Part shown: one piece after another, positions 42,572 to 61,078 of the stretch
How the letters are laid out: each line of letters opens with the position of its first letter
Numbering within the stretch: position 1 is the stretch's first letter
Assembly: GCA_963663275.1 (NCBI GenBank)
Contig: OY760183.1
Location: 736,001-800,000 of the forward strand
Direction: 5' to 3'
Source of the DNA: Chloroflexota bacterium
Lineage (GTDB): Bacteria; Chloroflexota; UBA11872; VXOZ01
Length of the DNA stretch: 64,000 nt
The notes under the pieces: model-generated
Seen by the model: the letters and a program-made list of their open reading frames with translations, nothing else
The model's database searches: none
Told to the model about the DNA's origin: nothing
Translations under genes and position numbers: made by a program

Positions 42572-42696
42572 ATCGCGCATGGCCGAGAGGATCGGGACAC
42601 CGCTCCCGCCTCTCGCCTTGCCGTCCTCCATCCCCGCACGGGCTGCTCCGTCCTCTGGCCAGGACGGAGCGCCAGTGTTTGGCGGTTGGAGAACGG
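42572..42696 (+). ncRNA. Candidate structured leader RNA, copy 1
   Basis: Homologous to 51182-51306 and 60954-61078; stems GAGAGG/CCTCTC, CGGGA/TCCCG, CTCCA/TGGAG, GCTCCGTCCT/AGGACGGAGC. Confidence 0.55.
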
Positions 42697-42996
42697 ACGC
42701 GGCATCGAGCATGAGCATAGGCAAGGAAGCAGCCGGCGCTAGCCAGCCGGCTACAGAGGTGAGTCCGCGAGGCCACTTGATGACGGAGCGGACGTAAGCA
42801 GGAATGGCGGAGCGTTGCCGCGGAAAAGGACGGCACGCTCGCAGGTAGCGCCGCCAGCGCGCGCCGGCCGGAGAGCGCGGCAAGCCGAAGCGAAGCAGCA
42901 GATTGCGAGAGGGCTTGCCAGCGGGATTGCGGTCGAGAGCGAACGCGGCGGTAGGGGATAGAGTTCGGTAGTAGCAGGACAGCTATGGAGCGTGTC

Positions 42997-45900
42997 ATGA
43001 GCGGGACGGTTTCGGTAGGACGGCAGAACGCGCGCAAGCGCAATATCGGATGGCTGGCCTTGGCGCTGGCCCTGTTCACGGTAAGTTTTCTCATTTCTCC
43101 CATTGCCTCCGCGCAGGCGGCGGGCGTAAGCGGTTGGGCGGAGTCCGAGTCCGTCCAGACGCGACCGGAAGCGACCCCCACACCTAAGCCGGTTCCAACG
43201 CCAACGCCTGAACCGACAGCCACACCGACGCCGGAACCGACGGCCACACCGACGCCGGAACCCACGGCCACACCGACGCCGGAACCCACGGCCACACCGA
43301 CGCCGGAACCGACAGCGATACCGACGCCTGAACCAACGGCCACGCCGACCCCGGAACCGACAGCGATACCGACGCCGGAACCGACGCCTGAACCCACGGC
43401 CACACCGACCCCTGAGCCCACCGCAACGCCGACCCCTGAGCCGACTCCGGAACCCAAGGCGACCCCGACGCCTGTGCCGGCGCCGCAAGCGCCAAACGGC
43501 GTGAAAGCCACCCGGGGCAGCGGGACGCTGACGGTCAGTTGGAGCGCCGTAGATGGCGCGACCGGCTACAACGTCAATTGGACGGACGATAACAGGACTA
43601 GCTGGAACCGCGGCGCGAGCGACGTGAGCGGCACGAGCGTGACGCTCAAGAACGTGGACGATAGCAAAGACTACTACGTCTCCGTGCAGGCGGTGAACGC
43701 CGGCGGCGCCAGCGGCTGGACGGATTCCAGCCTCATACCGGCCGACCAGCCCTCCATCCAACCGACCGCGACACCGGCCCCGGCGGACCTCAGCTTCAGC
43801 GTCAACGACATTGCCGACCAGGACTACACCAAGGACGTCGCCTTCGTTACGCTGAACCTGCCTGAGGCCAGCGGCGGCAGCGGCGCGCTCACCTACAGCC
43901 TCTCCGGGACGCTGCCCGCGGGACTGAGCTTCGACGCCTCGGCGCGCACCATCAGCGGCACGCCTACGGAGGCCAAGGGCACGGTTGCCCTGACGTACAC
44001 GGCTACCGACGGCACGGACACCGCTTCCATCATGTTCAACCTGCGGGAGGCCTCGGAATACGCCCAGGCGGCGGCAAACCAAGCGCCCCAAACGATAGCC
44101 ACCACCCACAATACCCATCACCGGATATCGCCCTCGAGTGACCCCCCAGGCAGTGACAACGAGTGCTACCACAACCACGGGGTGTCGTACCCATCCGGCG
44201 AGAATAGCTATTTCAGTGACCCGGACGGCGACACGCTTACCATCACGTCGACCAGCTCGCATCCCGGGCTGGCAGCCATCACGCAGAACACCCCGGTCAG
44301 GATTCGCGCCAACCACCCCGCCGACACCTGGATAACCATAACCACCACGGCAACGGACCCCGGCGGCCTCTCCGCGAACTTCACCTGGCAGTACAAGATG
44401 ACCTGCACCACCGCCCTGTCGGTGAACGAGAACTCCGCCGCCGGCACCGACGTGGGCTCGGTGGGCAGAAAAGGTAATGGTAACGCCGCGGCCAGCAGCT
44501 ATACCATCGAAGGGGATGCCGCCAACGCTTTCACCATTAACAGCAGCAGCGGCCTGATCGAGGTGAAGTCCGGGGCGAGCCTGGACTACGAGACCAAGAC
44601 CAGCTACAGCGGCACGGTCAAGTACAAGGCATCCAAAACAGTGGATGGCACCAGCCACACCAACGATTCTGCCCGCAGCGTGACAATCAACATCAACAAC
44701 GTGGGCCCGCCGTCCATGAACGCGCCCACGGTGGCAGCGGACTCCTCAAATCCGACCGTCCAGCTGCTTGTGTCCTGGACGGCCCCGACCTCTACCCACC
44801 CCAACGGCATCACCGGCTACAATATACAGCACAGGCTGACCGGGGCCAGCAGTTGGACGAGCCTGAGTTTCAGCGGCACGGGAACCAGCAAGGAACTGAA
44901 CTGGCGCACCGCCGGCAAAAGCTACGACGTGCAGGTGCGGGCCATCGACGGCGAGGGCACCGGCGCCTGGTCCGCCTCCGGCACCGGCACCACCCAGTAC
45001 ACCACGCAGACGCGCGACATCGCCGAGAACTCGGCGGCGAACACCAACGTGGGCGCGGCAGTGGATGCCGATTCCAACCCCAACGGCTACACCCTGAGCT
45101 ACGCGCTGAGCGGAACCGACGCCAGCAGTTTCAACATCAACTCGTCCACCGGGCAAATCACGGTGAAGTCGGGAACCAACCTGGACTACGAAACCAAGTC
45201 GTCTTACAGCGTCATCGTCACCATGACGGCCTCCGGGGGCAGCGGCACCGGCACCGGCAGCACCGGCCTCAGCCCCAACGGGACGGGCGATTACGTCATC
45301 CCGGTAACCATCGACGTAACCGACGTGAACGAAACGCCCCAGTTTCCGACTGGCCCGCTAACCCGCAGCATCGCCGAAAACTCGGCGGCGGGCACCAACA
45401 TCGGCACGGCGGTTACCGCCAGCGCCGGCCAGGCCGCGTTGACCTACTCGCTTACGGGAACCAACGCCAGCGACTTCGACATCGTATCAACCACCGGACA
45501 AATACAAGTCAAGTCGGCCCTGAACTACGAATCCAAGACCTCGTACACCGTGACGGTGAACGTAACCGACGGCAAGGACAGCATGAACGATGACGACAAC
45601 AGCATCGACGACACCGTCACCGTAACCATCAACGTGACGGACGTGAACGAGCCGCCGGCCAAGCCGGCCGCGCCGTCGGTGTCGGTGAACAGCACGACGC
45701 CGACCAGCAAGCTGGACGCGAGTTGGACGGCGCCGGACATGACCGGCAAGCCGGCGATAACCGACTACGACGTGCAGTACCGGCAGGTGGGCGCTACTAA
45801 CTGGACGGACGCTTCGTTCACGGGCACGGGCACGAGCACGACCCTGAGCAGCCTGACCGCGAGCAAGAGCTACGAGGTGCAGGTGCGGGCCACGAACGAC

Positions 45901-48900
45901 GAAGGGACGAGCGCCTGGTCGGATTCGGGCACGGCGATCACCGACGGCAGCGCGGTGACCCGCAGCATCGCGGAGAATTCGCCGGCGGGGACGGCCGTAG
46001 GGGCCGCGGTAACGGCGAGTTCCAACCCGAACAGCTACACCTTGACGCACAGTCTGAGCGGAACGGACGCCGGCAGCTTTACGATCGAGAGCGGGACCGG
46101 GCAGATAAAGGTGAAGACGGGCACGAACCTGGACTACGAGACGAAGAAGAGCTACAGCGTGACGGTGACGGTGAAGGCGGCGGTGGCGCAGACCCAAGGC
46201 GCAAGCGAGTCGTCGGTGGCGCCCAACAATCCCGGCAATTACGTGATACCGGTGACGATCAACGTGACCGACGTGAACGAAAAGCCGGAGTTTACCGACG
46301 ACACGGCCACGCGGAGCATCGCCGAGAATTCGGCGGTAGGGACGAACGTGGGCGCGGTAGTGACGGCGAGCGACGTGGACGGCGACACGCTGGAGTATTC
46401 GCTGACGGGCACCGACGCCGGGAAGTTCGACATTGGGTCGGGCACGGGCCAGATCACGGTGAAGACGGGCTACGTGCCCGACTACGAGGCAAAGACCTCG
46501 TACAGCGTGACGGTGAACGTGAGCGACAAGAAGAACGCGAGCGGCACGGCGGACACGGTAATCGACGATACGATTGCGGTGACGATCAACGTGACGGACG
46601 TGAACGAGCCGCCGGCCAAGCCGGCCGCGCCGACGGTGACGATCCATTCCACCTCGCCCACGTCGAAGCTGGACGTAAGCTGGACGGCGCCGGACATGAC
46701 CGGCAAGCCGGCCATCAGCGACTACGACGTGCAGTACCGGCAGGTGGGCGCTGCTAGCTGGACGGACGCCTCGCACAGCGGAACGGGCACGAGCCTGACG
46801 TTGAGCAGCCTGACGGCGGGCAAGACCTACGAGGTGCAGGTGCGCGCCACGAATGATGAAGGGACGAGCCCCTGGTCGGATTCGGGCACGGCGATTACCG
46901 ACGGGAACGCGGTGAGCCGCAGCATCGCCGAGAACTCGGCGGCGGGCACGGCGGTAGGCGCGGCGGTAACGGCGACGTCCAATCCGAACAACTACACCTT
47001 GACGCACACGATGAGTGGGACGGACGCCGGGAAGTTCAGCATCGATAGCGGGACGGGTCAGATCAGCGTGGGTACGGGTACGACTCTGGACTACGAGACG
47101 AAGACGAGTTACAGCGTGACGGTGACGGTAGCGGCGGCGAGTAGCGGCGGCGGCGCCCAGGGCGCGTCGGTGTCGCCGAACAATCCCGGCAACTACGTGA
47201 TACCGGTGACGATCAATGTGACGGACGTGAATGAAGGGCCGGAGTTTTCCGACGACACGGCCACGCGGAGCATCGCCGAGAACTCGGCGGTGGGGACGAA
47301 CGTGGGCGCGGTAGTGACGGCGACCGACCCTGAGGGCGATACGATTACCTATTCGCTGACGGGAACCGACGCGGCCAAGTTCAGCATCGATAGCGCGACG
47401 GGCCAGATCAGCGTGGGCACGGGCACGACGCTGGACTACGAGAGCAAGACCTCGTACAGCGTGACGGTGAACGCGACCGATAAGAAGAAGGCGGACGGCA
47501 CGGCGGACACGGCGATCGACGACACGATCGCGGTGACGATCAACGTAACGGACGTGAACGAACCGCCGGCCAAGCCGGCCGCGCCGAGGGTGGCGGTCAA
47601 CGCCGCCTCTCCGGAAACGAAGCTGGACGTGAGTTGGACGGCGCCGACGATGACCGGCAAGCCGGCCATAACCGACTACGATGTGCAGTACCGGAAGCAC
47701 GGTGACGCGAACTGGACGGACGCCTCGTTCACAGGCGCGGGCACGAGCACGACGCTGACGGGCTTGACGTCCGGCAAGAGCTATGAGGTGCAGGTGCGGG
47801 CCACGAATGATGAAGGGACGAGCCCCTGGTCGGATTCTGGCACGGCGATTACCGACGCGAACGCGGTGAGCCGCAGTGTGCCGGAGAACTCTGCGGCGGG
47901 CACGAACGTGGGCGCGGCGGTAACGGCGAGTTCCAACCCGAACGGCTATACCCTGACGCACAGTTTGAGCGGCACGGACGCCGGCAAGTTCACGATTGAG
48001 AGCGGCAGCGGCCAGATAAAGGTAAAGACGGGCACGAACCTGGACTACGAGACGAAGAATTCGTACAGCGTGATCGTGACGATAGCGGCGGCCTCGGGCG
48101 GCGGCGCCCAGGGCGCGTCGGTGACGCCGAACAATCCGGGTAACTACGTGATCCCGGTGACGATCAACGTGACGGACGTGAATGAAGCGCCGGAGTTTAC
48201 CGACGACACGGCCACGCGGAGCATCGCCGAGAACTCGGCGGTGGGTACGAACGTGGGGGCCGTGGTGACGGCGAGCGACGTGGACGGCGATACGCTGGAG
48301 TATTCGCTGACGGGAACCGACGCGGCTAAGTTCGACATTGGGTCGGGCACGGGCCAGATCACGGTGAAGACGGGCTACGTGCCCGACTATGAGGCGAAGA
48401 CCTCGTACAGCGTGACGGTGAACGTGAGCGATAAGAAGAATGCGAGCGGCACGGCGGACACGGTGATCGACGACACGATCGCGGTGACGATCAACGTCAC
48501 GGACGTGAACGAGCCGCCGGGCAAGCCGGCCGCGCCGACGGTGACCATCCATTCCACCTCGCCGGAAACCAAGCTGGACGTGAGTTGGACGGCGCCGGAC
48601 ATGACGGGCAAGCCGGCGATCAGCGACTACGACGTGCAGTATCGGCAGGTGGGCGCTGCTAACTGGACGGACGCCTGGCACAGCGGGACGGGCACGAGCC
48701 TGACGCTGAGCGGCCTGACCGCGGGCAAGACCTACGAGGTGCAGGTGCGGGCCACGAACGATGAGGGCGCCGGGCCCTGGTCGGATTCGGGCTCGGCCAT
48801 AACCGACGGGGACGCGATCACGCGCAACATCGCCGAGAATTCACCGGCGGGTACGGCGGTAGGGGCGGCGGTGACGGCCAGTTCCAATCCGAACAACTAT

Positions 48901-50433
48901 ACCTTGACGCACACGATGAGCGGCACGGACGCCGGCAAGTTCAGCATCGATAGCGGGACGGGTCAGATAAGCGTGGGTACAGGGACGGTGCTGGACTACG
49001 AGACCAAGAATTCGTACAGCGTAATCGTGACGGTCGCGGCGGCGCAGAGCCAGAGCCAAGGCGCCCAGGGCGCATCGGTGTCGCCGAACAATCCCGGTAG
49101 TTACGTGATACCGGTGACGATCAACGTGACGGACGTGAACGAAAAGCCGGAATTTACGGATGGGACGTCAACCACGCGCAGCATCGCCGAGAACTCGCCG
49201 GTAGGGACGAACGTGGGCGCGGCGGTGGCCGCTACGGACGTAGACGGCGACACGCTGACCTATTCGCTGGCGGGGACGGACGCGGACTCGTTTACAATCG
49301 TAGCGTCCACCGGCCAGATACAGGTGAAGGACGTTCCCGACTACGAGGCGAAGACCTCGTACAGCGTGACGGTAGGCGTGAGCGACGGCAAGGACTCTCA
49401 AGGCAACGCGGACACGGCGATCGACGCGACGATTGCGGTGACGATCAACGTGACGGACGTGGATGAGCCGCCGGACGCGCCGGACGCGCCGGCGGTGTCG
49501 GGGCACGACACGTCGCCGAGGAGGAAGCTGAACGTGAAGTGGAAAGCGCCGGACATGACGGGCAAGCCGCCGATCACCGACTACGACGTGCGGTACCGCA
49601 TAGAGAACTCCGGCACGTGGATGGACGCGTCGTTCAGCGGGACGGGCACGAGCACGACGCTGACCGGCCTGTCCGAGGACACCACGTATGAGGTGCAGGT
49701 GAAGGCCTGGAACGACGAGGGCGAGAGCGGATGGTCGACGATGGGCCGGGGCAGGACGGATCTGTATGTAGCGCCGAACGTGCAAGCAACGCCGACGCCG
49801 GTGCTAGACCCCTCGGCGCCGCACGTGCCGGGGCCGAATTCCCCCGTCGTCTTGGGCAAGAGCGCGTGCGCGACAGCCTATGACTTTGGGAAGACGATGC
49901 ACGTGGACCGGCACGACGGCGGAGCGGACCTGGACATCGAGATAGGCTCCATCTCGGCCGACGGCAGCAAGATTGTGGTGGCGGGCTTCATCCGGGACGG
50001 CGACCTGGGTCAGACCTATAGCGTGGTGCGCTACGAGGCCGACGGCCGCGTGGTGCGGGTGTGGGTGGATCCGGACGACCCGTTGATCCGTGAAATCCCC
50101 TGGGCAGAGGTGAACACGAAGTACACGGTGCCGGTCTGCGTGGTGGTGTCGATACCGCTGGACGACCAGTTCCCGGCTCTGGGGCAGATGGTGCGGCGCT
50201 TCGACGGCCAGGACGACCGCATCTTCCGCCACGTGGGCAACCTGGTGTGGCGTCACATACCGGACGAAGGCACGTTCCAGTCGCTGGGGTACTACTGGTG
50301 CAACGTGACGGCGGCCAATGCGGGCTACTTCAAGAATATCAACATTGGCGAGCCGCTCCCCAGCAGCGGGACGGCGCCGCAGGGCGACTACCCAAGTTGT
50401 TGGGTCTGGGGAGAGGAGCCTCGCTCCAGGTAA
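42997..50433 (+). CDS. Giant secreted surface protein/adhesin 1: signal peptide, Pro/Thr linker, Fn3, putative Ig, about five Fn3-cadherin-cadherin units, conserved C-terminal domain
   Basis: ~2480-aa ORF; [23 protein letters not shown] cadherin motifs; VSWTAP..YDVQYR..YEVQVRA Fn3 motifs; GGAG 6 nt before ATG 42997. Confidence 0.93.
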
Positions 50434-50513
50434 CGCCGGGCCGCCGGACGTAGGGTGACGGCGTCCGCACAGAAGAAGAGGTTGGCCGACGGCGTACGTA
50501 GAGAAGAAGCGAT

Positions 50514-50551
50514 GAGGCCGTCCCGCGGAGACACATCCGCGGGACGGCCTC
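50514..50551 (+). terminator. GC-rich 16-bp stem-loop downstream of giant gene 1
   Basis: GAGGCCGTCCCGCGGA-GACACA-TCCGCGGGACGGCCTC; homologue follows gene 2; U-tract weak. Confidence 0.6.
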
Positions 50552-50688
50552 TCTTCGCGTGCCGCACTCCCCCCCCCCCCCCCATGCCGCCGCGCCCCTG
50601 AACCCCCTCGCGTAATCTCCCCCTCACCCTAACCCTCTCCCCCAGGGAGAGGGGACAGGAGGCGCTCCTTTAACTCCCTCTCCCCCAG

Positions 50689-50834
50689 CTGACAGGGGTA
50701 GGCAAGTGTCATTCCGAGCGGAGCGAGGAATCTAGGACCGACGTTTTTGCAGCGAAAGCCTTAGATTCCTCTCTCCGCTGCGCTCCGCTCGGAATGACAC
50801 GTGAAGTCGGATGTAGAATGCCTACCCCTGTCAG
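50689..50834. mobile_element. MITE family B copy inserted in a CCCTCTCCCCCAGGGAGAGGG hairpin array
   Basis: Perfect 16-bp TIRs; flanking direct repeat CTCTCCCCCAG; body resembles 42161-42332 inverted. Confidence 0.88.
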
Positions 50835-51034
50835 CTCTCCCCCAGGGAGAGGGGACAGGAGGCACTCCTTTTACTCCCTCTCCCCCAGGGAGAGGGGACA
50901 GGAGGCGCTCCTTTTACTCCCTCTCCCCCAGGGAGAGGGCCGGGGTGAGGGGGGCGCGCAGGGTGGGATATACCCAATTTTCTCGGTTTTTCCAGGTTTT
51001 CTCGGATTTTCTCCCATTTTCTTGCCAAAACCGC

Positions 51035-51063
51035 TTGCACTGCTTTTGTGCGTTGTGTATTAT
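51035..51063 (+). promoter_or_regulatory. Putative sigma70 promoter TTGCAC-17-TATTAT for giant gene 2
   Basis: Near-consensus boxes with 17-bp spacer; five phased T-tracts upstream. Confidence 0.75.
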
Positions 51064-51181
51064 CTGTGTATGTCATTAGATGCAAACGCAACTGATGAAG
51101 GACGGTAGGACAGCACATAGTATGAACCAGTATCCTGTTGCGCTCACTGTGTGTGAAAAGGCACAGGAACAAGCGGACTGT

Positions 51182-51306
51182 ATCGCGCATGGCCGAGAGG
51201 TTCGGGGGACGCCCCCGCCTTTCGCCGTGCCGTCCTCCATCCCCGCACAGGCTGCTCCGTCCTCGACCCAGGGCGGAGCGCCGGTGTTTACCGGATGGAG
51301 CGCAGC
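51182..51306 (+). ncRNA. Candidate structured leader RNA, copy 2
   Basis: Stems GAGAGG/CCTTTC, CGGGG/CCCCG, CTCCATCC/GGATGGAG, GCTCCGTCCT/AGGGCGGAGC. Confidence 0.55.
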
Positions 51307-51596
51307 CGCCAAGCGGGTCACTAGTAGTGTAGCAGGCGCTAGCCGGCCGGCTACAGCGGAGGCAAGCAGAAAAATGGAGGAAGCAGCCAAGTAGGTCTTA
51401 GCCTGAGTGGAGCCGGCGCGGGACGCCAGCACGCTTACAGGCAACGCCGCCAGCGCGCGCCGACCGGCAACGCGGCAAGCCGGAGAGAGTAGCCAGAGTT
51501 TTGACGGAGAGGGTTTGCGGCAGGGTTGCGGTCGGGAACGGGCGCTGCGGTCAGGGGACAGAGTTCGGTGACGGCAGGAAAGCTTTGGAGCGTGTC

Positions 51597-54500
51597 ATGA
51601 GCGGGACGGTTTCTCGTTACTCGTTAGCACGGCAGAACGCGCGGAAGCGCAGTATCGGGTGGCTGGCCTTGGCGCTGGCCCTGTTCGCGGTAAGTTTCCT
51701 CATTTCCCCCATCGCCTCCGCGCAGGCGGCGAGCGTCAGCGGTTGGGCGGAGTCCGAGTCCGTCCAGGCGCAATCGGATCCGACCCCCACGCCCGAACCC
51801 ACCGCAACCCCGACCCCGGCGCCCCTCGCCTTCAACGTCACCGGCATTAGCGACCAGCAGTACATGAAGGGCGTTTCCTTCGGTACGTTGAACTTGCCGG
51901 CGGCCACCGGCGGCAGCGGTTCGCTCACCTACAGCCTGTCCGGCACGCTGCCCGCGGGCCTGACTTTCAGCGCCTCGGCGCGCACCATCAGCGGCACGCC
52001 CACGGAGTCCAGGGGCACAGTCTCCCTGGCGTACGCGGCTACCGACGGCACGGACACCGCTTTCATCAGGTTCAGCCTGCTGGAGGCGATGGAACAAAAG
52101 ACCCCCACCCCGGTTCCGGTCCCGCCAGCGCCCGGCGGCGTCAGCGCGATCCGCGGCACTGGCACGTTGACCGTCAGTTGGAACGCCGCCGCGGGCGCGA
52201 CCGGCTACAACGTTAATTGGACGGACGATCACAAGTCCAGTTGGAAGCGCGGCGCCAGCAACGAGAGTGGCACGAGCGTAACGCTCAGCGACATCGACGA
52301 CAGCAAAGACTACTATGTGGCCGTGCAGGCCGTGAACGGCAGCGGCGCCAGCGGCTGGACGGACTCCGGCCTCATCAAGGCCGCGCCGCAACCCACGCCC
52401 ACGCCGAAGCCGGTGCCGACGGCGACCCCCACACCGGTTCCGGCCCCGCCAGCGCCCAGCGGCGTCAGCGCCAGCCGCGGCGTCGGCACGCTCAACGTCA
52501 GTTGGAACGCGGCGGCCGGCGCGACCGGCTACAACGTCAATTGGACGGACGACGGCAAGGCCAGTTGGAACCGCGGCGCGAGCAACGTCAGCGGCACGAG
52601 CGTGACGCTCAACAACATCGACGCCACCAAAGACTACTACGTCTCCGTGCAGGCGGTGAACGCCGGCGGCGCCAGCGGCTGGACGGATTCCAGCCTCATA
52701 ACGGCCGGGCAGCCCTCGCTCCAAGCGACCCCGACCCCGGCGGACCTCAGCTTCAGCGTCAACGACATTGCCGACCGGAACTACACCAGCGGCGTCGCCT
52801 TCGGTACGTTGAACCTGCCTGAGGCCACCGGCGGCAGCGGTTCGCTCACCTACAGCCTCTCCGGGACGCTGCCCGCGGGCCTCAGCTTCGATTCGTCGGC
52901 GCGCACCATCAGCGGCACGCCCACGGAAGGCAAGGGCACGGTCGCCCTGACGTACCAGGTTACCGACGGCACGGACACCGCTTCCATCAAGTTCAACCTG
53001 CTGGAGGCCCAGGAAGAAGCCCGGGCGCAGAACAACCAAGCGCCCGAAACGATAGCCAGCACCCACGATACCCATCACCAGATAAACCCCTCGAGCGACC
53101 CCCCAGGCGGTGACAACCAGTGCTACCACAACCACGGGGTGTCGTACCCATCCGGCGAGAGTAGCTATTTCAGTGACCCGGACGGCGACACGCTTACCAT
53201 CACGTCGACCAGCTCGCATCCCGCGCTGGCAGCCATCACGCAGGTCACCCCGGTCAGGATTCGCGCCAACCATCCCGCCGACACCTGGGTGACCATAACC
53301 ACCACGGCAACGGACCCCGGCGGCCTCTCCGCGAACTTCACCTGGAAGTACAAGATGACCTGCACCACCGCCCTGTCGGTGAACGAGAACAGCGCCGCCG
53401 GCACCGACGTGGGCTCGGTGGGCAGAAAAGGGAATTCTAACGCCGCGGCCAGCCAATATACCATCGAAGGGGACGCCGCCAACGCTTTCACCATTAACAG
53501 CAGCAGCGGCCTGATCGAGGTGAAGTCCGGGGCCAGCCTGGACTACGAGACCAAGAGCAGCTACAGCGGCACGGTCAAGTACAAGGCATCCAAGACAGTG
53601 GATGGCACCAGCTACACCAACGATTCTGCCCGCAGCGTGACAATCAACATCAATAACGTAGGCGGGCCTTCGGCGAACACGCCCACGGTGACCCGGGACG
53701 CCACCACGCCGACCACCAAGCTGGACGTGTCCTGGACTGCATCGACGTCCACGCACGCCAACGGCGTCACCGACTACGACGTGCAATACCGGCTGACCGG
53801 GGCCAGCAGTTGGACCAGCAAGTCCCACACCGGAACGACCACCAGCACGGAGCTTACGGGCCTCACCGCGGGCAAGAGCTACGAGGTGCAGGTGCGGGCC
53901 ACCGACGGCGAAGGCACCGGCTCCTGGTCATCCTCCGGCACGGCCATCACCCAATACACCACGCAGACCCGCAGCATCGCCGAAAACTCGACCGGCAATG
54001 TTGGCGCGGCGGTGGACGCCGATTCCAACCCCAAAGGCTACACCCTGTCCTACTCCCTGGGCGGAACCGACGCCAGCAGCTTCGACATCAGCTCCTCCAC
54101 CGGCCAAATCACGGTGGCAACGGGAACCACGCTGGACTACGAAACCAAGAAGTCCTACAGCGTCACCGTGACCATGGCGGTGTCCGGAACGACCAGTGTC
54201 ACCGGCACCGGCAACACCGGCCTCAGCCCCAACGGGACGGGCAACTACCTCATCCCGGTGACCATCAACATAACCGACGTGAACGAAACGCCCCAGTTCC
54301 CGAAGGACACGGACACCCGCAGCATCGCCGAAAACTCGGCGGCGGGCACCAACATCGGCGCGGCGGTTACCGCCAGCGCCGGCCAGGCCGCGTTGACCTA
54401 CTCGCTTACGGGAACCAACGCCAGCGACTTCGACATCGTATCAACCAGCGGACAAATACGAGTCAAGTCGGCCCTGAACTACGAATCCAAGACCTCGTAC

Positions 54501-57500
54501 AGCGTGACGGTGAACGTAACCGACGGCAAGGACAGCAGCAACAATGACGACAGCAGCATCGACGACACCATCACCGTAACCATCAACGTGACGGACGTGA
54601 ACGAGCCGCCGGCCAAGCCGGCCGCACCGACGGTGTCGGCCAACAGCACGACGCCGACGAGCAAGCTGGACGTAAGCTGGACGGCGCCGACGATGACCGG
54701 CAAGCCGGCCATAACCGACTACGACGTGCAGTACCGCAAGCACGGCGAGTCCTCGTGGACGGACGCCTCCTTCACGGGCACGGGCACGAGCACGACCCTG
54801 AGCAGCCTGACCGCGAGCAAGAGCTACGAGGTGCAGGTGCGCGCCACGAACGACGAAGGGACGAGCGACTGGTCGGATTCGGGCACGGCGATCACCGACG
54901 GGAACGCGGTGACCCGCAGCATTGCCGAGAACTCGGCGGCGGGCACGGCGGTAGGGGCCGCGGTGACCGCCAGTTCCAACCCGAACGACTACACCCTGAC
55001 GCACAGTCTGGGCGGGACGGACGCCGGCAAGTTCACGATCGAGAGCGGCAGCGGCCAGATAAAGGTGAAGACGGGCACGAACCTGGACTACGAGACGAAG
55101 ACCAGTTACAGCGTGACGGTGACGGTCGCGGCGGCGGTGGCGCAGAGCGAAGGCGCTAACAGTCAATCGGTGTCGCCGAACAACCCCGGCAACTACGTGA
55201 TACCGGTGACGATCAACGTAACCGACGTGAACGAAGCGCCGGAGTTTACCGGCAGCACGGCCACGCGGAGCATCGCCGAGAACTCGGCGGTAGGGACCAA
55301 CGTGGGCGCGGCGGTGACGGCGACCGACGTGGACGGCGATACGCTGGAGTATTCGCTGACGGGCACCGACGCGGGTAAGTTCGACATCAGCTCGAGCACG
55401 GGCCAGATCACGGTAAAGACGGGCCACGTGCCCAACTACGAAGCCAAGACCTCGTACAGCGTGACGGTGAACGTGAGCGACAAGAAGAACGCGAGCGGCA
55501 CGGCGGACACGGCGATCGACGACACGATTGCGGTGACGATCAACGTGACGGACGTGGACGAGCCGCCGGATGCGCCGGCCGCGCCGACGGTGTCGGCCAA
55601 CAGCACAACGCCGACCAGCAAGCTGGACGTAAGCTGGACCGCGCCGACGATGACCGGCAAGCCGGCAATCAGCGACTACGACGTGCAGTACCGCAAGCAC
55701 GGAGATTCGTCATGGACGGACGCCTCGTTCACGGGCACGGGCACGAGCACCACGCTGACGGGTCTGACCGCGGGCAAGAGCTACGAGGTGCAGGTGCGGG
55801 CCACGAACGATGAAGGCACGAGCGCTTGGTCGGATTCGGGCACGGCCATTACCGACGGCAGCGGCGTGACCCGCAGCATCGCCGAGAATTCGGCGGCGGG
55901 CACGGCGGTAGGCGCGGCGGTGACGGCCAGTTCCAACCCGAACGACTACACGCTGACGCACAGTCTGAGCGGAACGGACGCCGGCAAGTTCACGATTGAG
56001 AGCGGCAGCGGCCAGATTAAGGTGAAGACCGGCACGAACCTGGACTACGAGACGAAGAAGAGCTACAGCGTGACGGTGACGGTGGCGGCGACGGTGGCGC
56101 AAAGCGAAGGCGCTAACAGTCAGTCGGTCGCGCCGAACAACCCCGGCAGTTACGTGATACCGGTGACGATCAACGTGACCGACGTGAACGAGAAGCCGGA
56201 ACTCTCGGATGGGACGTCGGCGACGCGCAGCATCGCCGAGAACTCGGCGGTGGGGACGAACGTGGGCGCGGCGGTGGCCGCGACCGACCAGGACGGCGAT
56301 ACGCTGACCTATTCGCTGACGGGTACCGACGCGGGTAAGTTCGACATCAGCTCGAGCACGGGCCAGATCACGGTGAAGACGGGGCACGTGCCCAACTATG
56401 AAGCCAAGACCTCGTACAGCGTGACGGTGAACGTGACCGATAAGAAGAAGCCGGACGGCACGGCGGACACGGCAATCGACGATACGATTGCGGTGACGAT
56501 CAACGTGACGGACGTCGATGAGCCGCCGGATGCGCCGGCCGCGCCGACGGTGTCGGCCAACAGCACAACGCCGACCAGCAAGCTGGACGTAAGCTGGACG
56601 GCGCCGACGATGACCGGCAAGCCGGCGATCAGCGACTACGACGTGCAGTACCGCAAGCACGGGGATTCCTCCTGGACGGACGCCTCGTTCACGGGCACGG
56701 GCACCAGCACGACGCTGACGGGCCTGACCGCGGGCAAGAGCTACGAGGTGCAGGTGCGGGCCACGAACGATGAAGGCACGAGCGCCTGGTCGGATTCGGG
56801 CACGGCCATTACCGAAGGCAGTGGGGTGACCCGCAGCATCGCCGAGAACTCGGCGGCGGGCACTGCGGTAGGCGCGGCGGTGACGGCGTCGTCGAACCCG
56901 AATAGCTACACCTTGACCCACAGTTTGAGCGGCACGGACGCCGGCAGCTTTACGATCGACAGCGGCAGCGGCCAGATAAAGGTGAAGACCGGGACGAACC
57001 TGGACTACGAGACGAAGAAGAGCTACAGCGTGACGGTGACGGTGGCGGCGTCGGTGGCGCAGAGCGAAGGCGCTAACAGTCAGTCGGTCGCGCCGAACAA
57101 TCCCGGCAACTACATGATCCCGGTGACGATCAACGTGACCGACGTGAACGAGAAGCCGGAACTGACGGACGGGACGTCGGCCACGCGGAGCATCGCCGAG
57201 AACTCGGCGGTGGGCACGAACGTGGGCGCGGCGGTGGCCGCGACCGACCAGGACGGCGATACGCTGACCTATTCGCTGACCGGTACCGACGCGGCGAAGT
57301 TCGACATCAGCTCGACCACGGGCCAGATCACGGTGAAGACGGGCCACGTGCCCAATTACGAGGCCAAGACCTCGTACAGCGTGACGGTGAACGTGACCGA
57401 TAAGAAGAAGCCCGACGGCACGGCGGACACGGCGATCGACGACACGATCGCGGTGACGATCAACGTGACGGACGTGAATGAGCCGCCGGCGGCCCCGGAC

Positions 57501-60428
57501 GCGCCGACGGTGACGATCCATGCCACCTCGCCGGAAACGAAGCTCGACGTAAGCTGGACGGCGCCGGACATGACGGGCAAACCGGCCATCAGCGACTACG
57601 ACGTGCAGTACCGGAAGCATGGCGATTCCTCCTGGTCGGACGCCTCGTTCACGGGCACGGGCACGAGCACGACGTTGACGGGCCTGACCGCGGGCAAGAG
57701 CTACGAGGTGCAGGTGCGCGCCACGAACAACGAAGGCACCGGCCCTTGGTCGGCTTCGGGTTCGGCGATCACCGACGGAAACGCGGTGAGCCGCAGTGTG
57801 CCGGAGAACTCCGCGGCGGGCACGAACGTGGGCGCGGCGGTGACGGCCAGTTCCAATCCGAACAACTACACCTTGACGCACACGATGAGCGGCACGGACG
57901 CCGGCAAATTCACGATTGACAGCGGCACCGGCCAAATCAAGGTGAAGAGCGGCACGAACTTGGACTACGAGACGAAGAACAGCTACAGCGTGACGGTGAC
58001 GGTGAAGGCGGCGGTGGCGCAGACCCAAGGCGCAAAAAAGCAGTCGGTGGCGCCGAACAATCCCGGCAACTACGTGATCCCGGTGACGATCAAGGTGACC
58101 GACGTGAACGAGAAGCCGGAACTGTCGGAGGGGACGTCGGCGACGCGGAGCATCGCCGAGAACTCGCCGGTAGGGACGAACGTGGGCGCGGCGGTGACGG
58201 CAACCGACGTTGACGGCGATACGCTGACCTATTCGCTGACGGGCACCGACGCTGGGAAGTTCGACATCGGGTCGGGCACGGGCCAGATCACGGTGAAGAC
58301 GGGCCACGTGCCCAACTATGAAGCCAAGACTTCGTACAGCGTGACGGTGAACGTGACCGATAAGAAGAAACCCGACGGCACGGCGGACACGGCAATCGAC
58401 GACACGATCGCGGTGACGATCAACGTGACGGACGTGAACGAGCCGCCGCCGCAATTGGCCGCGCCGACGGTGACGACGAATGCCGCCTCGCCGACGGGCA
58501 AGCTGGACGTGAGTTGGGCAGCGCCGACGACCCAGCAGATGGCCGGCAAGCCGGCCGTGAACGACTACGACGTGCGCTACCGGAAACACGGCGACGCCAA
58601 CTGGACGGACGCCTCGTTCAGCGGCACGGGCACGAGCACTACCCTGGTAGGTGTGACGGCCAGCAAGAGCTATGAGGTGCAGGTGCGCGCCGGAAACGTG
58701 GAAGGAGAGGGCGCTTGGTCGCCTTCGGGCTCGGCCATAACCGACGGGGACGCGGTCACGCGCAGCATCGCCGAGAATTCGCCGGCGGGCACGGCGGTAG
58801 GCGCGGCGGTGACGGCCAGTTCCAACCCGAACAACTACACCTTGACGCACTCGTTGAGCGGAACGGACGCCGGGAAGTTCAGCATCGATAGCGGGACGGG
58901 TCAGATAAAGGTAGGGACGGGCACGTCGCTGGACTACGAGACGAAGACAAGCTACAGCGTAGTCGTGACGATAGCGGCGGCGAGTAGCGGCGGCGGAGCA
59001 TCGGCTAATTCGGTGGCGCCGAACAATCCCGGCAACTACGTGGTGCCGGTGACGATCAGAGTGACGGACGTGAATGAAATATCGGAGTTCACGGACGGGA
59101 CCACGGCCACGCGGAGCATAGTGGAGAACGCGTCGGTGGGGACGAACGTGGGCGCGGTAGTGACGGCGACGGACGTTGACGGCGATACGCTGACGTATTC
59201 GCTGCTGGGGACGGACGCGGACTCGTTCACCATCGTAGCGTCCACTGGGCAGATAAAGGTGAAGGCGGGCCACGTGCCCGACTACGAGACGAAGAATTCG
59301 TACAGTCTGTCGGTAGGCGCGAGCGACGGCAAGGACGCTAACGACAATCCGGATAACGCGGTGGACACCACGATACCGGTGAAGATCACGGTGACGGACG
59401 TCGATGAGCCGCCGGACGCGCCGGCCGCGCCGACGGTGACGACCAATGCGACGACGCCGACGAGCAAGTTGGACGTGAGTTGGACGGCGCCGGACACGAC
59501 CGGGAAGACGGCGATACACGACTACGACGTGCGCTACCGTGCGGATGGCGCTTCCGGCTGGACGGACGCATCGTTCAGCGGGACGGGCACGAGCACGACG
59601 CTGACCGGGCTGGACGCGGGCACCACGTATGCGGTGCAGGTGAGGGCCCGGAACTACGAGGGCGTAAGCGGCTGGTCGCCCTCGGGTAAAGGCAAGACGG
59701 ATCAGTCCAAGAATAAGGCCCCTCGGCAATTGCTGCCGCTGACGCCGACTCCGACGCCGTCGCTAGACCCATCGACGCCGCTATTGCAGGCGACGCCGGT
59801 GCTAGACCCCTCGGCGCCGCGCGTGCCGGGACCGACTACCCCCATCTTCTTGGGCAAGAGCGCGTGCGCGTCGGCCTATGACTTTGGGAAGACGATGCAC
59901 CTGGATCGACACGACGGCGGGGCTGACCTGGATATCGAGATTGGCTCGATCTCGGCCGACGGCAGCATAGAGGTAAAGGGCTTCATCCGGGACAGCGACC
60001 TGGGCCAGACCTATAGCATCGTGCGCTACGAGGCCGATGGCCGCGTGGTGCGGGTGTGGGTGGATCCGGACGACCCGTTGATCCATGAAATCCCCTGGGA
60101 AGAGGTGAACACGAAGTTCACGGTGCCGGTCTGCGTGGTGGTGGCGATCCCGCTGGACGACCAGTTCCCGGCTGTGGGGCAAATGGTGAGGCGGTTCGAC
60201 GGCCAGGACGACCGGATCTTCCGGCACGTGGGCAACCTGGTGTGGCGTCACATACCGGACGAAGGCACATTCCAGTCGCTGGGTTACCACTGGTGCAACG
60301 TGACAGCGGCCAACGCGGGCTACTTCGACCAGATCAACATCGGCGAGCCGCTTCCCAGCAGCGGGACGGCGCCGAAGGACGACTACCCAAGTTGTTGGGT
60401 CTGGGGAGAGGAGCCTCGCTCCCGGTAA
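51597..60428 (+). CDS. Giant secreted surface protein/adhesin 2 (about six Fn3-cadherin-cadherin units; same C-terminal domain as gene 1)
   Basis: ~2940-aa ORF; internal 960-nt periodicity; GGAG 6 nt before ATG 51597. Confidence 0.93.
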   Translation: MSGTVSRYSLARQNARKRSIGWLALALALFAVSFLISPIASAQAASVSGWAESESVQAQSDPTPTPEPTATPTPAPLAFNVTGISDQQYMKGVSFGTLNLPAATGGSGSLTYSLSGTLPAGLTFSASARTISGTPTESRGTVSLAYAATDGTDTAFIRFSLLEAMEQKTPTPVPVPPAPGGVSAIRGTGTLTVSWNAAAGATGYNVNWTDDHKSSWKRGASNESGTSVTLSDIDDSKDYYVAVQAVNGSGASGWTDSGLIKAAPQPTPTPKPVPTATPTPVPAPPAPSGVSASRGVGTLNVSWNAAAGATGYNVNWTDDGKASWNRGASNVSGTSVTLNNIDATKDYYVSVQAVNAGGASGWTDSSLITAGQPSLQATPTPADLSFSVNDIADRNYTSGVAFGTLNLPEATGGSGSLTYSLSGTLPAGLSFDSSARTISGTPTEGKGTVALTYQVTDGTDTASIKFNLLEAQEEARAQNNQAPETIASTHDTHHQINPSSDPPGGDNQCYHNHGVSYPSGESSYFSDPDGDTLTITSTSSHPALAAITQVTPVRIRANHPADTWVTITTTATDPGGLSANFTWKYKMTCTTALSVNENSAAGTDVGSVGRKGNSNAAASQYTIEGDAANAFTINSSSGLIEVKSGASLDYETKSSYSGTVKYKASKTVDGTSYTNDSARSVTININNVGGPSANTPTVTRDATTPTTKLDVSWTASTSTHANGVTDYDVQYRLTGASSWTSKSHTGTTTSTELTGLTAGKSYEVQVRATDGEGTGSWSSSGTAITQYTTQTRSIAENSTGNVGAAVDADSNPKGYTLSYSLGGTDASSFDISSSTGQITVATGTTLDYETKKSYSVTVTMAVSGTTSVTGTGNTGLSPNGTGNYLIPVTINITDVNETPQFPKDTDTRSIAENSAAGTNIGAAVTASAGQAALTYSLTGTNASDFDIVSTSGQIRVKSALNYESKTSYSVTVNVTDGKDSSNNDDSSIDDTITVTINVTDVNEPPAKPAAPTVSANSTTPTSKLDVSWTAPTMTGKPAITDYDVQYRKHGESSWTDASFTGTGTSTTLSSLTASKSYEVQVRATNDEGTSDWSDSGTAITDGNAVTRSIAENSAAGTAVGAAVTASSNPNDYTLTHSLGGTDAGKFTIESGSGQIKVKTGTNLDYETKTSYSVTVTVAAAVAQSEGANSQSVSPNNPGNYVIPVTINVTDVNEAPEFTGSTATRSIAENSAVGTNVGAAVTATDVDGDTLEYSLTGTDAGKFDISSSTGQITVKTGHVPNYEAKTSYSVTVNVSDKKNASGTADTAIDDTIAVTINVTDVDEPPDAPAAPTVSANSTTPTSKLDVSWTAPTMTGKPAISDYDVQYRKHGDSSWTDASFTGTGTSTTLTGLTAGKSYEVQVRATNDEGTSAWSDSGTAITDGSGVTRSIAENSAAGTAVGAAVTASSNPNDYTLTHSLSGTDAGKFTIESGSGQIKVKTGTNLDYETKKSYSVTVTVAATVAQSEGANSQSVAPNNPGSYVIPVTINVTDVNEKPELSDGTSATRSIAENSAVGTNVGAAVAATDQDGDTLTYSLTGTDAGKFDISSSTGQITVKTGHVPNYEAKTSYSVTVNVTDKKKPDGTADTAIDDTIAVTINVTDVDEPPDAPAAPTVSANSTTPTSKLDVSWTAPTMTGKPAISDYDVQYRKHGDSSWTDASFTGTGTSTTLTGLTAGKSYEVQVRATNDEGTSAWSDSGTAITEGSGVTRSIAENSAAGTAVGAAVTASSNPNSYTLTHSLSGTDAGSFTIDSGSGQIKVKTGTNLDYETKKSYSVTVTVAASVAQSEGANSQSVAPNNPGNYMIPVTINVTDVNEKPELTDGTSATRSIAENSAVGTNVGAAVAATDQDGDTLTYSLTGTDAAKFDISSTTGQITVKTGHVPNYEAKTSYSVTVNVTDKKKPDGTADTAIDDTIAVTINVTDVNEPPAAPDAPTVTIHATSPETKLDVSWTAPDMTGKPAISDYDVQYRKHGDSSWSDASFTGTGTSTTLTGLTAGKSYEVQVRATNNEGTGPWSASGSAITDGNAVSRSVPENSAAGTNVGAAVTASSNPNNYTLTHTMSGTDAGKFTIDSGTGQIKVKSGTNLDYETKNSYSVTVTVKAAVAQTQGAKKQSVAPNNPGNYVIPVTIKVTDVNEKPELSEGTSATRSIAENSPVGTNVGAAVTATDVDGDTLTYSLTGTDAGKFDIGSGTGQITVKTGHVPNYEAKTSYSVTVNVTDKKKPDGTADTAIDDTIAVTINVTDVNEPPPQLAAPTVTTNAASPTGKLDVSWAAPTTQQMAGKPAVNDYDVRYRKHGDANWTDASFSGTGTSTTLVGVTASKSYEVQVRAGNVEGEGAWSPSGSAITDGDAVTRSIAENSPAGTAVGAAVTASSNPNNYTLTHSLSGTDAGKFSIDSGTGQIKVGTGTSLDYETKTSYSVVVTIAAASSGGGASANSVAPNNPGNYVVPVTIRVTDVNEISEFTDGTTATRSIVENASVGTNVGAVVTATDVDGDTLTYSLLGTDADSFTIVASTGQIKVKAGHVPDYETKNSYSLSVGASDGKDANDNPDNAVDTTIPVKITVTDVDEPPDAPAAPTVTTNATTPTSKLDVSWTAPDTTGKTAIHDYDVRYRADGASGWTDASFSGTGTSTTLTGLDAGTTYAVQVRARNYEGVSGWSPSGKGKTDQSKNKAPRQLLPLTPTPTPSLDPSTPLLQATPVLDPSAPRVPGPTTPIFLGKSACASAYDFGKTMHLDRHDGGADLDIEIGSISADGSIEVKGFIRDSDLGQTYSIVRYEADGRVVRVWVDPDDPLIHEIPWEEVNTKFTVPVCVVVAIPLDDQFPAVGQMVRRFDGQDDRIFRHVGNLVWRHIPDEGTFQSLGYHWCNVTAANAGYFDQINIGEPLPSSGTAPKDDYPSCWVWGEEPRSR

Positions 60429-60475
60429 CGCCGGGCCGCTTGAGGTAGGGCTTTCGGCGTAAGCAGAGACAAAGT

Positions 60476-60519
60476 GGAGAGGCCGTCCCGCGGAGTGAAA
60501 TCCGCGGGGCGGCCTCTCT
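60476..60519 (+). terminator. GC-rich stem-loop downstream of giant gene 2
   Basis: GGAGAGGCCGTCCCGCGGA-GTGAAA-TCCGCGGGGCGGCCTCTCT; homologous to 50514-50551. Confidence 0.6.
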
Positions 60520-60806
60520 GCGCGTGCCCGGTTCCAACGGCGAAAACCCGGAAGCCACACCCCCGCGATGCAGGCTTGGCGGCAGTTTCTCGCGCTCCGG
60601 CGGGGGACAAGCCCCCGCGCTACGTTAACGCGACAGCATTGGGGACAAGCCCCCGGGCTACGCTAATGCGACGGCATGGGGGTGAGGTGGGAGAATGAGA
60701 CTCCCTCTCCCTGGGGAGAGGGCCGGGGTGAGGGGGGAGAGCAGGGGGAGATACCCGGAACTTCCCCGGTTTTTTCCGGTTTCTCCTATTTTACCCCCAG
60801 AATCGC

Positions 60807-60835
60807 TTGCGCCGTTTAGATGCGTCGTGTATTAT
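60807..60835 (+). promoter_or_regulatory. Putative sigma70 promoter TTGCGC-17-TATTAT for giant gene 3
   Basis: Third copy of the promoter layout, with T-tracts upstream. Confidence 0.72.
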
Positions 60836-60953
60836 CTGTCTGTAACATTAGAGGCATACACAACGAATGTAGGATGATAGCAGATAGCATCAGATGAATC
60901 GGAATTATGTCTTGCACAGTGTATTGGGAACGTCACACAAGCAAGCGGAATTC

Positions 60954-61078
60954 ATCGCGCATGGCCGAGAGGTACGGGGGGCGCTCCCGCCTCTCGTCCT
61001 GCCGTCCTCCATCCCCGCACAGGCTGCTCCGTCCCTTGGCCGGGACGGAGCGCCAGTGTTCGCCGGGTGGAGGGCAGC
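60954..61078 (+). ncRNA. Candidate structured leader RNA, copy 3
   Basis: Stems GAGAGG/CCTCTC, CGGGG/TCCCG, GTCCTCCATCC/GGGTGGAGGGC, GCTCCGTCCC/GGGACGGAGC. Confidence 0.55.

Follow-up and report, generated by a model that had tools for sequence, protein, structure and literature searches.

How are giant surface-protein genes controlled in uncultured Chloroflexota? We know of nothing established on this point. The question arises from a 64,000-nucleotide (nt) stretch of a Chloroflexota genome (contig OY760183.1, positions 736,001 to 800,000; hereafter the window) that carries three such genes, each preceded by a homologous segment of about 125 nt. An earlier sequence-only reading of the window took this segment, here called the element, for a new cis-regulatory RNA. 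The analysis favors a modified form of that proposal, to which we give a probability of roughly 0.5: the element would be a cis-acting module of a multi-hairpin, untranslated 5' leader RNA located before lineage-specific giant cadherin/FN3 genes. The broader statement that the element has some role as a cis-acting RNA seems somewhat more probable than not.

The host genome (G000; 3.53 Mb, 99.6% complete, about 65% G+C) contains element copies A, B, and C in the window, before genes A, B, and C, and copy D before a fourth paralog, gene D, outside the window. In a sister species of the same genus (G011), leaders Ga and Gb possess the element and leader Gm, that of the middle paralog, lacks it. 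Coordinates prefixed with w are positions in the window. A covariance model (CM) was built from the four host copies and was searched against genomes of the genus (17) and of the class (98) and against a sample of 150 other phylum genomes that does not include G011. Comparisons of the element involve six copies from two species, which are not independent, and comparisons of the leader 3' domain involve seven leaders; with so few and related sequences, their power is low.

Distribution and conservation of the element

The CM recovered the three homologous segments at the places where they had been claimed (Table 1), and a BLAST search of the whole host genome added the fourth copy (G000:C1:938565-938696), which lies some 290 nt ahead of a paralog whose start region is the same. 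Strong CM matches were limited to the four host copies and two copies in G011 (65 and 47 bits), that is, to 2 of the 17 genus genomes and 2 of the 98 class genomes, and none was found in the 150 other phylum genomes. Additional CM matches within the genus were weak (E 0.04-0.85) and included the reverse strand of the element itself. Exact longer patterns searched over all species-representative genomes returned the G011 record only, and two metagenome scans for the element returned no contigs. BLAST against 61 relatives yielded, beyond the host and G011, only three matches of 25-29 nt in two genomes, G018 and G028 (E 0.001-0.008), which we take to be chance. An 18-nt core pattern was uninformative, with at least 120 matching stretches in genome contigs, mostly in unrelated taxa or in another repeat.

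All six copies sit in leaders of the seven giant cadherin/FN3 paralogs (four in the host, three in G011). Each copy is tied to a gene for a giant surface protein, so a scattered repeat is ruled out, and since copies occur only where this gene family occurs, the element travels with the family. The proposed link to surface-protein genes thus holds, the four host copies lying on the coding strand at the same leader position. Metagenomic sequences agree with the known copies: (i) contigs of a sponge-metagenome run include 15 records with leader DNA or close relatives, two of them at 95-99% likeness, (ii) a coral-metagenome run provides one 151-nt piece with zero differences to the leader, and (iii) a comparison with all contigs of four runs yielded short pieces only, in which the element differences are the known differences between paralogs, with no new sequences.

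The expectation that the element is not a known riboswitch or T-box was borne out by Rfam 15, in which no family matches it. At the gathering score, the only match in the whole window is a tRNA at w32147-32220. At E <= 10, four 3.1-kilobase (kb) loci gave 20 weak matches below the gathering score; all of them fell between locus positions 940 and 1285, on the upstream side of the promoter-like motif, and the leaders had none. A literature search turned up no such Chloroflexi motif, only general motif-discovery papers; published motif sets outside Rfam may exist.

As had been claimed, the element is better conserved than its flanks. In the pairs A-B, A-C, and B-C, identity is 85-88% in the element, compared with 47-63% in the 5' leader, 54-67% in the middle part, and 67-73% in the 3' domain. 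The special status of the element is qualified by a second block, 150-250 nt downstream of it, that is about equally conserved and is present in all seven leaders. For the C-Ga pair, which are likely orthologues, identity reaches 86% in the element and 84% in the 3' domain, versus 50-54% in the flanks. Three aligned upstream regions of 801 nt have a mean column identity of 78%, with a nearly invariant block at the element. Its C-rich linker UGCCGUCCUCCAUCCCCGC, together with the adjoining bases, is identical in all six copies.

Predicted RNA structure of the element

In each copy, the element is predicted to form two hairpins separated by the C-rich linker, and the stems correspond to those described in the sequence-only reading. 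Hairpin 1 has an outer stem GAGAGG/CCT(C/T)TC and an inner stem whose fifth pair is A-U in copy A, G-C in copy B, and G-U in copy C. The apical stem of hairpin 2 has 10 base pairs (bp); its loop-closing U-A pair is replaced by C-G in copy C, a U-A pair is replaced by U-G in copy B, and the loops are variable. The proposed basal stem of hairpin 2, CTCCATCC/GGATGGAG, stands in the window copies and is not kept in the two G011 copies, so that 79% of its cells are paired and five of its eight pairs include unpaired cells.

Predicted folds are more stable than dinucleotide shuffles in five of six copies (z -5.4, -3.4, -4.8, -5.0, and -3.2; the sixth has z -1.2). The same two hairpins were recovered independently by RNAalifold, which lengthened hairpin 1 by GCA/UGC. 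Standard pairs occupy 94% of the element pair cells; sliding the partners by 1-3 columns as a control lowers this to 42-49%. Variation is concentrated outside the helices, with 39 of 59 unpaired columns variable as compared to 26 of 78 paired ones. In the G011 copies, hairpin 1 is rebuilt with a shifted register and altered strands. A conserved structure is plausible, short of proof by covariation in six related copies.

The strand can be addressed by the type of mismatch. Counted over hairpin 1 and the upper part of hairpin 2, there are 18 G-U cells and 3 A-C cells, an excess that favors, and fits, an RNA read from the + strand. The clustering of variation in unpaired columns and the rebuilt hairpin 1 of the G011 copies count toward the same reading. 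Thermodynamics alone is without strand information, as copy A folds equally well in reverse (z -5.8 on the - strand).

The element as a part of a larger leader

Rather than a stand-alone regulator of 125 nt, the element is more aptly seen as one part of a longer structured leader of about 400-675 nt. The alignment of seven leaders is a mosaic that extends from the 5' part to the ribosome-binding site and includes the element.

Directly upstream of the -35-like hexamer of gene A are four TTTTCTC-like repeats with a 10-bp period. Arrays of this kind, with three to four repeats, also lie ahead of genes B, C, and D and of all three paralogs in G011. In a whole-genome search with the two-repeat pattern TTTTCTCNNNTTTTCTC (at most one mismatch), seven of eight matches lie before genes A, B, and D, and the reversed control gave 0. 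The repeats could be an array for a dedicated transcription factor or phased DNA-bending T-tracts. They are followed by a promoter-like motif with the consensus TTGCRY-17-TAKTNT, in which TTG, the 17-nt spacing, and -10 positions A2 and T6 are kept in all seven leaders; a consensus promoter scan did not call it. The transcription start would be placed by this motif alone. As the earlier reading had it, the -10-like TATTTT of gene A (w42448-42453) is located 119 nt before the element, and from the end of the element it is 289 nt to the first ATG and 301 nt to the second.

The first ~110 nt of the presumed leader (w42460-42570) are AU-rich, with a local G+C of 0.56 versus about 0.65-0.70 nearby, and contain short strings conserved in most copies, among them AAUAGUU and GAAACUAAUUCAUGAUGGUA. 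Downstream of the element, the leader includes the hairpin GUAGCCGGC...GCCGGCUAC and the 3' domain (w42804-43002 in A) with a GAGCG.GCCG hairpin and a rod-like hairpin (Table 1), and it ends with a purine block and the ribosome-binding site. On the + strand, the rod-like hairpin has fold z values between -2.7 and -3.2; for the - strand of copy A, the value is -1.1. Across all seven leaders, 95% of the 3'-domain cells are paired, against 29-39% with slid partners, and 6 of 35 pairs are changed on both sides, compared with 2.4 in shuffles; none of 500 shuffles reaches six. Relatedness inflates some covariation measures, and the pair count is the robust one. Four of the six covarying pairs fall within one 6-bp helix. 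Covariation in the 3' domain supports a leader that is transcribed and folded on the + strand.

Leader Gm (locus L149, G011:C3:284963-288151, positions 1240-1690) retains the promoter-like motif and the 3' domain. Most of the element is gone; what remains is a diverged piece of the hairpin 1 5' strand, and the CM gives no match at this locus. The 3' domain of Gm is 94% identical to that of the neighboring Gb, which suggests a recent duplication or conversion. Its open frame is intact. Taken together, these features show the element to be ancestral, lost once by deletion, and not needed for an open gene.

These data bear on the possibility that the conserved sequence has no RNA function, being either a relic of tandem duplication kept alike by gene conversion or a DNA-level site, such as a protein-binding site downstream of the promoter. 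Homology of the whole upstream region among the paralogs would agree with it, and so would the near-identity of the Gb and Gm 3' domains as a mark of recent exchange or duplication, the - strand fold of copy A, and the absence of significant covariation within the element (see below). However, conversion homogenizes whole tracts, whereas here the loops differ and the stems and linker are fixed, both within and between species. The contrast between element and flanks in the C-Ga pair, the excess of G-U over A-C, and the true covariation of the neighboring 3' domain also argue against this explanation, which we consider improbable.

Possible mechanisms

Rho loading followed by premature termination is the most likely specific mechanism because of three features of the leaders and the genome: (i) in every one of the six leaders with the element, a single large C>G bubble is centered on it and covers 82-98 positions of the 78-nt windows, the value for the element-less leader being 2; (ii) 21-23 YC dimers are found in 70 nt around the element core; and (iii) Rho is encoded in the genome (a PF07497 match with 97.3 bits in an open frame of 508 amino acids). 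The bubble rule uses 78-nt windows, and bubbles of more than 78 positions occur in templates that always terminate in vitro, according to Nadiras et al. (PMC6144790). The leaders are G-rich overall (G/C 1.3-1.6). In the proposed mechanism, two stable hairpins would hold between them the invariant, largely unpaired C-rich tract UGCCGUCCUCCAUCCCCGC; the tract and the C-rich hairpin strands would constitute a Rho loading site; and the share of transcripts that read through into the 6-9-kb gene would depend on whether the tract is paired with G-rich leader segments instead. Rho-dependent attenuation as such is held here tentatively, as a doubtful but specific proposal.

In a wider version, which we regard as quite unlikely, the whole ~400-675-nt leader would be a new, lineage-specific, multi-domain riboregulator that converts a host-derived or environmental signal into Rho-dependent read-through and so coordinates which giant eukaryote-like (cadherin/FN3) surface proteins are displayed by a Chloroflexota cell living with a sponge or coral, the element-less paralog having escaped this control. 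It would run from the phased repeats upstream of the promoter, through the AU-rich 5' part and the two-hairpin C-tract module, to the further hairpins and the rod.

Several observations weigh against the favored reading. The 78-nt C>G rule was calibrated on E. coli and Salmonella only, and not on a genome of about 65% G+C. The bubble is partly the geometry of two hairpins with their C-rich strands facing, the C-rich stretch is largely base-paired in the prediction, and stable structure disfavors Rho. The G-richness of the leaders (skew about +0.15) is within the range of coding regions. The compensatory changes described in the sequence-only reading are present but few, and covariation is not significant: in the model-guided alignment of six sequences, 2 of 39 pairs are changed on both sides, a count reached by 80 of 500 shuffles. 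A third pair (columns 86/93) appears as UA, UG, and CG. The six copies are related sequences from two species and are not independent, and a larger alignment is not buildable because no further copies were found. Gm has an intact open frame of 2954 amino acids without the element. Finally, a search for RNA runs with the leader sequence found none.

Alternatively, the C-rich tract, displayed between the two hairpins, could be a platform for a protein or a small RNA, or could pair with G-rich leader segments near the ribosome-binding site and tune mRNA half-life or translation initiation, leaving termination unaffected. The combination of an unpaired sequence that does not vary and loops that do is typical of a site of sequence-specific recognition, and CUCCAU is the exact complement of AUGGAG, which holds the Shine-Dalgarno-like GGAG. 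In folds of the complete leader, UGGAG is the local partner of the tract in A and B, and a GGGGAUAGAG-type block ~40 nt upstream of the start is its partner in D and Gb (at probability 1.0) as well as in C (at 0.55). Yet the tract never pairs with the Shine-Dalgarno bases in any full-leader fold, and the anti-Shine-Dalgarno pairing CUCCAU/AUGGAG was rejected on this ground. Long-range pairing with the purine block before the start was rejected as well, since duplexes of the tract with local or distal segments are no better than those with shuffled targets (z +0.25 to -2.0; 4-58% of shuffles as good). The purine block is, moreover, identical in the element-less paralog, and no candidate partner was identified, CsrA in particular having no gene found in the 99.6% complete genome. 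Such a platform is, in our judgment, unlikely.

For a ligand-binding riboswitch, in which the hairpins and linker would form an aptamer (e.g., for c-di-GMP or Ca2+) and the downstream structures an expression platform, the chances appear very small. Its attractions are the long, structured, and conserved leader before costly genes, the invariant nucleotides between the helices, and the possible alternative pairings; c-di-GMP riboswitches before adhesin genes are a known precedent. However, (i) no Rfam riboswitch matches even at E <= 10, (ii) no terminator-like expression platform is seen, (iii) the internal loops of hairpin 2 are mostly variable, with the exception of one bulged U, (iv) validated riboswitch classes are all spread far more widely than the 2 of 98 class genomes seen here, and (v) one paralog manages without the element. 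Among the results there is no specific pointer to a ligand-binding riboswitch.

An attenuator with an intrinsic terminator fares no better, with no terminator-like site called in the three elements; the bases after hairpin 2 in the six copies are UUUGG, UUCGC, UUUAC, UUCGC, CUUGC, and UACCG. Specialized antitermination was ruled out by the single NusG (PF02357) match, with no paralog, in each of the 17 genus genomes, and a CsrA-bound leader by the lack of a PF02599 match in the host genome. An upstream open frame or leader peptide was rejected because neither start codon nor frame is conserved: the ATG at the element start is TTG in Ga and ACG in Gb, and, owing to an indel of 1 nt in the loop of hairpin 1, A and D are in a different frame from B and C while the downstream nucleotides are unchanged.

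Taken together, the regulatory interpretation retains the support of the Rfam search, the gene linkage, the conservation, and the + strand signal, and it does not receive that of covariation, of a terminator, or of any specificity for a riboswitch.

The giant genes and their neighborhood

Giant open frames (1930-3008 amino acids) that share a C-terminal domain number four in the host genome and three in G011, and they are present only in these two species. In gene A, Pfam identifies Cadherin in 11 stretches (E 2e-105) and fn3 in 7 (E 1.6e-74). Gene B is homologous to it in leader and N-terminus, and the C-terminal domains of the two are 90% identical. The second ATG is the likely start of gene A because GGAG lies 6 nt upstream, GGAGCGTGTCATG is invariant in all seven leaders, and the upstream ATG is TTG in copy B.

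The last ~200 amino acids of gene A (w49800-50430) have no match to a Pfam family; a query with its 260 C-terminal amino acids hit only the preceding fn3 tail and, at chance level, DUF3592 (E 0.75). This ~200-amino-acid domain was found in all 17 genus genomes, a single genome having as many as 17 matches, and most of the proteins that carry it are 200-1000 amino acids long. It could serve in anchoring or sorting.

Table 1. Coordinates of leader features, element copies, and giant genes in the window
Feature	Position	Strand	Remarks
TTTTCTC-like repeats, gene A	w42377..42413	+	four repeats, 10-bp period, upstream of -35-like hexamer
TTTTCTC-like repeats, gene B	about w50986-51023		
Promoter-like motif, gene A	w42425..42453	+	TTGCAC, 17-nt spacer, TATTTT
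Promoter-like motif, gene B	w51035-51063		
Promoter-like motif, gene C	w60807-60835		
Element copy A	w42572..42700	+	hairpin 1, C-rich linker UGCCGUCCUCCAUCCCCGC, hairpin 2; CM 147.9 bits; predicted fold -76 kcal/mol, z -5.4
Element copy B	w51182..51309	+	CM 143.7 bits; predicted fold z -4.8
Element copy C	w60954..61081	+	CM 143.4 bits; predicted fold z -5.0
Hairpin GAGCG.GCCG...CGGC.CGCUC, gene A	w42810..42840	+	10 pairs, 98.6% of cells paired in 7 leaders
GAGCG.GCCG hairpin, gene B	w51405-51436		
GAGCG.GCCG hairpin, gene C	w61176-61207		
Rod-like hairpin of 3' domain, gene A	w42850..42952	+	roughly 105 nt; 4 of 6 pairs of inner helix changed on both sides
Rod-like hairpin, gene B	w51446-51551		
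Rod-like hairpin, gene C	w61217-61320		
Likely true start of gene A	w42987..42999	+	Shine-Dalgarno-like GGAG, 6-nt gap, ATG at w42997
Gene A, putative surface protein	w42997..50433	+	2478 amino acids; signal-peptide-like start, Pro/Thr-rich linker
Gene B, paralog of gene A	w51597..60428	+	about 2943 amino acids, open frame; start ATG at w51597
Gene C, paralog	w61365..64000	+	continues past window edge; full open frame in the genome 2304 amino acids; start ATG at w61365

Genes neighboring the adhesin cluster encode a SulP permease, an alpha-2-macroglobulin, and GNAT acetyltransferases, and no regulator gene was found among the genes adjoining the adhesin loci. The alpha-2-macroglobulin-like protein (1414 amino acids, w35216-39460, - strand), two genes upstream of the cluster, has MG2, MG3, bait region, A2M, thioester, and receptor-binding domains.

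The window also contains a dispersed repeat, GGGAGAGGGCCGGGGTGAGGGG, which belongs to a hairpin-forming unit (w50931-50952, w60714-60735, w26383-26404, and w39682-39703). It has 203 matches with at most two mismatches on both strands of the whole genome (reversed control 0), and the promoter-like motifs of genes B, C, and D each have a copy about 100 nt before them.

Farther upstream, a gene for an AAA_21/AAA_15 ATPase (w22173-24316, + strand) is followed by a DUF4276 gene, and the pair looks like a two-gene module common in defense islands. Five long open frames (137-457 amino acids) at w26310-32000 have no Pfam match at E <= 1e-5; some of them may be spurious products of a G+C-rich genome.

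Comparison with known systems

A role in the contact of symbionts with their animal hosts is ascribed to giant cadherin- and fibronectin-like proteins (PMC8163846 and other papers). A structured leader with a conserved module offers a concrete, testable handle on the control of their genes. The phylum contributes little to the stock of known regulatory RNAs, to which the element would add a motif; its value is limited by six copies, two species, and an uncultured host organism. Judged by the sequences compared, the element is a real, conserved, and family-specific leader module without known relatives, within a larger and previously unnoticed structured leader.

The nearest analogy for the mechanism is provided by the enterobacterial Rho-dependent attenuators, such as the mgtA, corA, and mgtCBR leaders, and by the rut sites of lambda tR1. 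Like the enterobacterial leaders, the leaders described here are long and apparently untranslated, have a C- and YC-rich tract near hairpins able to hide or expose it, and carry a C>G bubble of more than 78 positions whenever the element is present, in a genome with a Rho gene. Unlike them, they belong to another phylum and a G+C-rich genome, have no sequence or Rfam relation to the enterobacterial leaders, possess very stable flanking stems, and are known here from sequence only.

Conserved leaders of several hundred nt before unusually long genes for surface structures are also a feature of the LoaP hairpins, RfaH/ops, Bacteroides UpxY, and the pLS20 leaders. By published accounts, those systems need a specialized NusG paralog or a dedicated antiterminator gene, whereas here there is one NusG and no adjoining regulator. 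The c-di-GMP-I/II (GEMM) riboswitches resemble the proposed system as cis-acting leader RNAs before surface-adhesion genes, and the element differs from them in the absence of an Rfam match and in its architecture of two hairpins joined by a 20-nt C-rich linker. Finally, REP- and MITE-type repeats such as GGGAGAGGGCCGGGGTGAGGGG are likewise short, G+C-rich, hairpin-forming, and present in several copies. In contrast to that dispersed repeat, with its 203 matches on both strands, the element has four copies, all on the coding strand and all in the leaders of one gene family.

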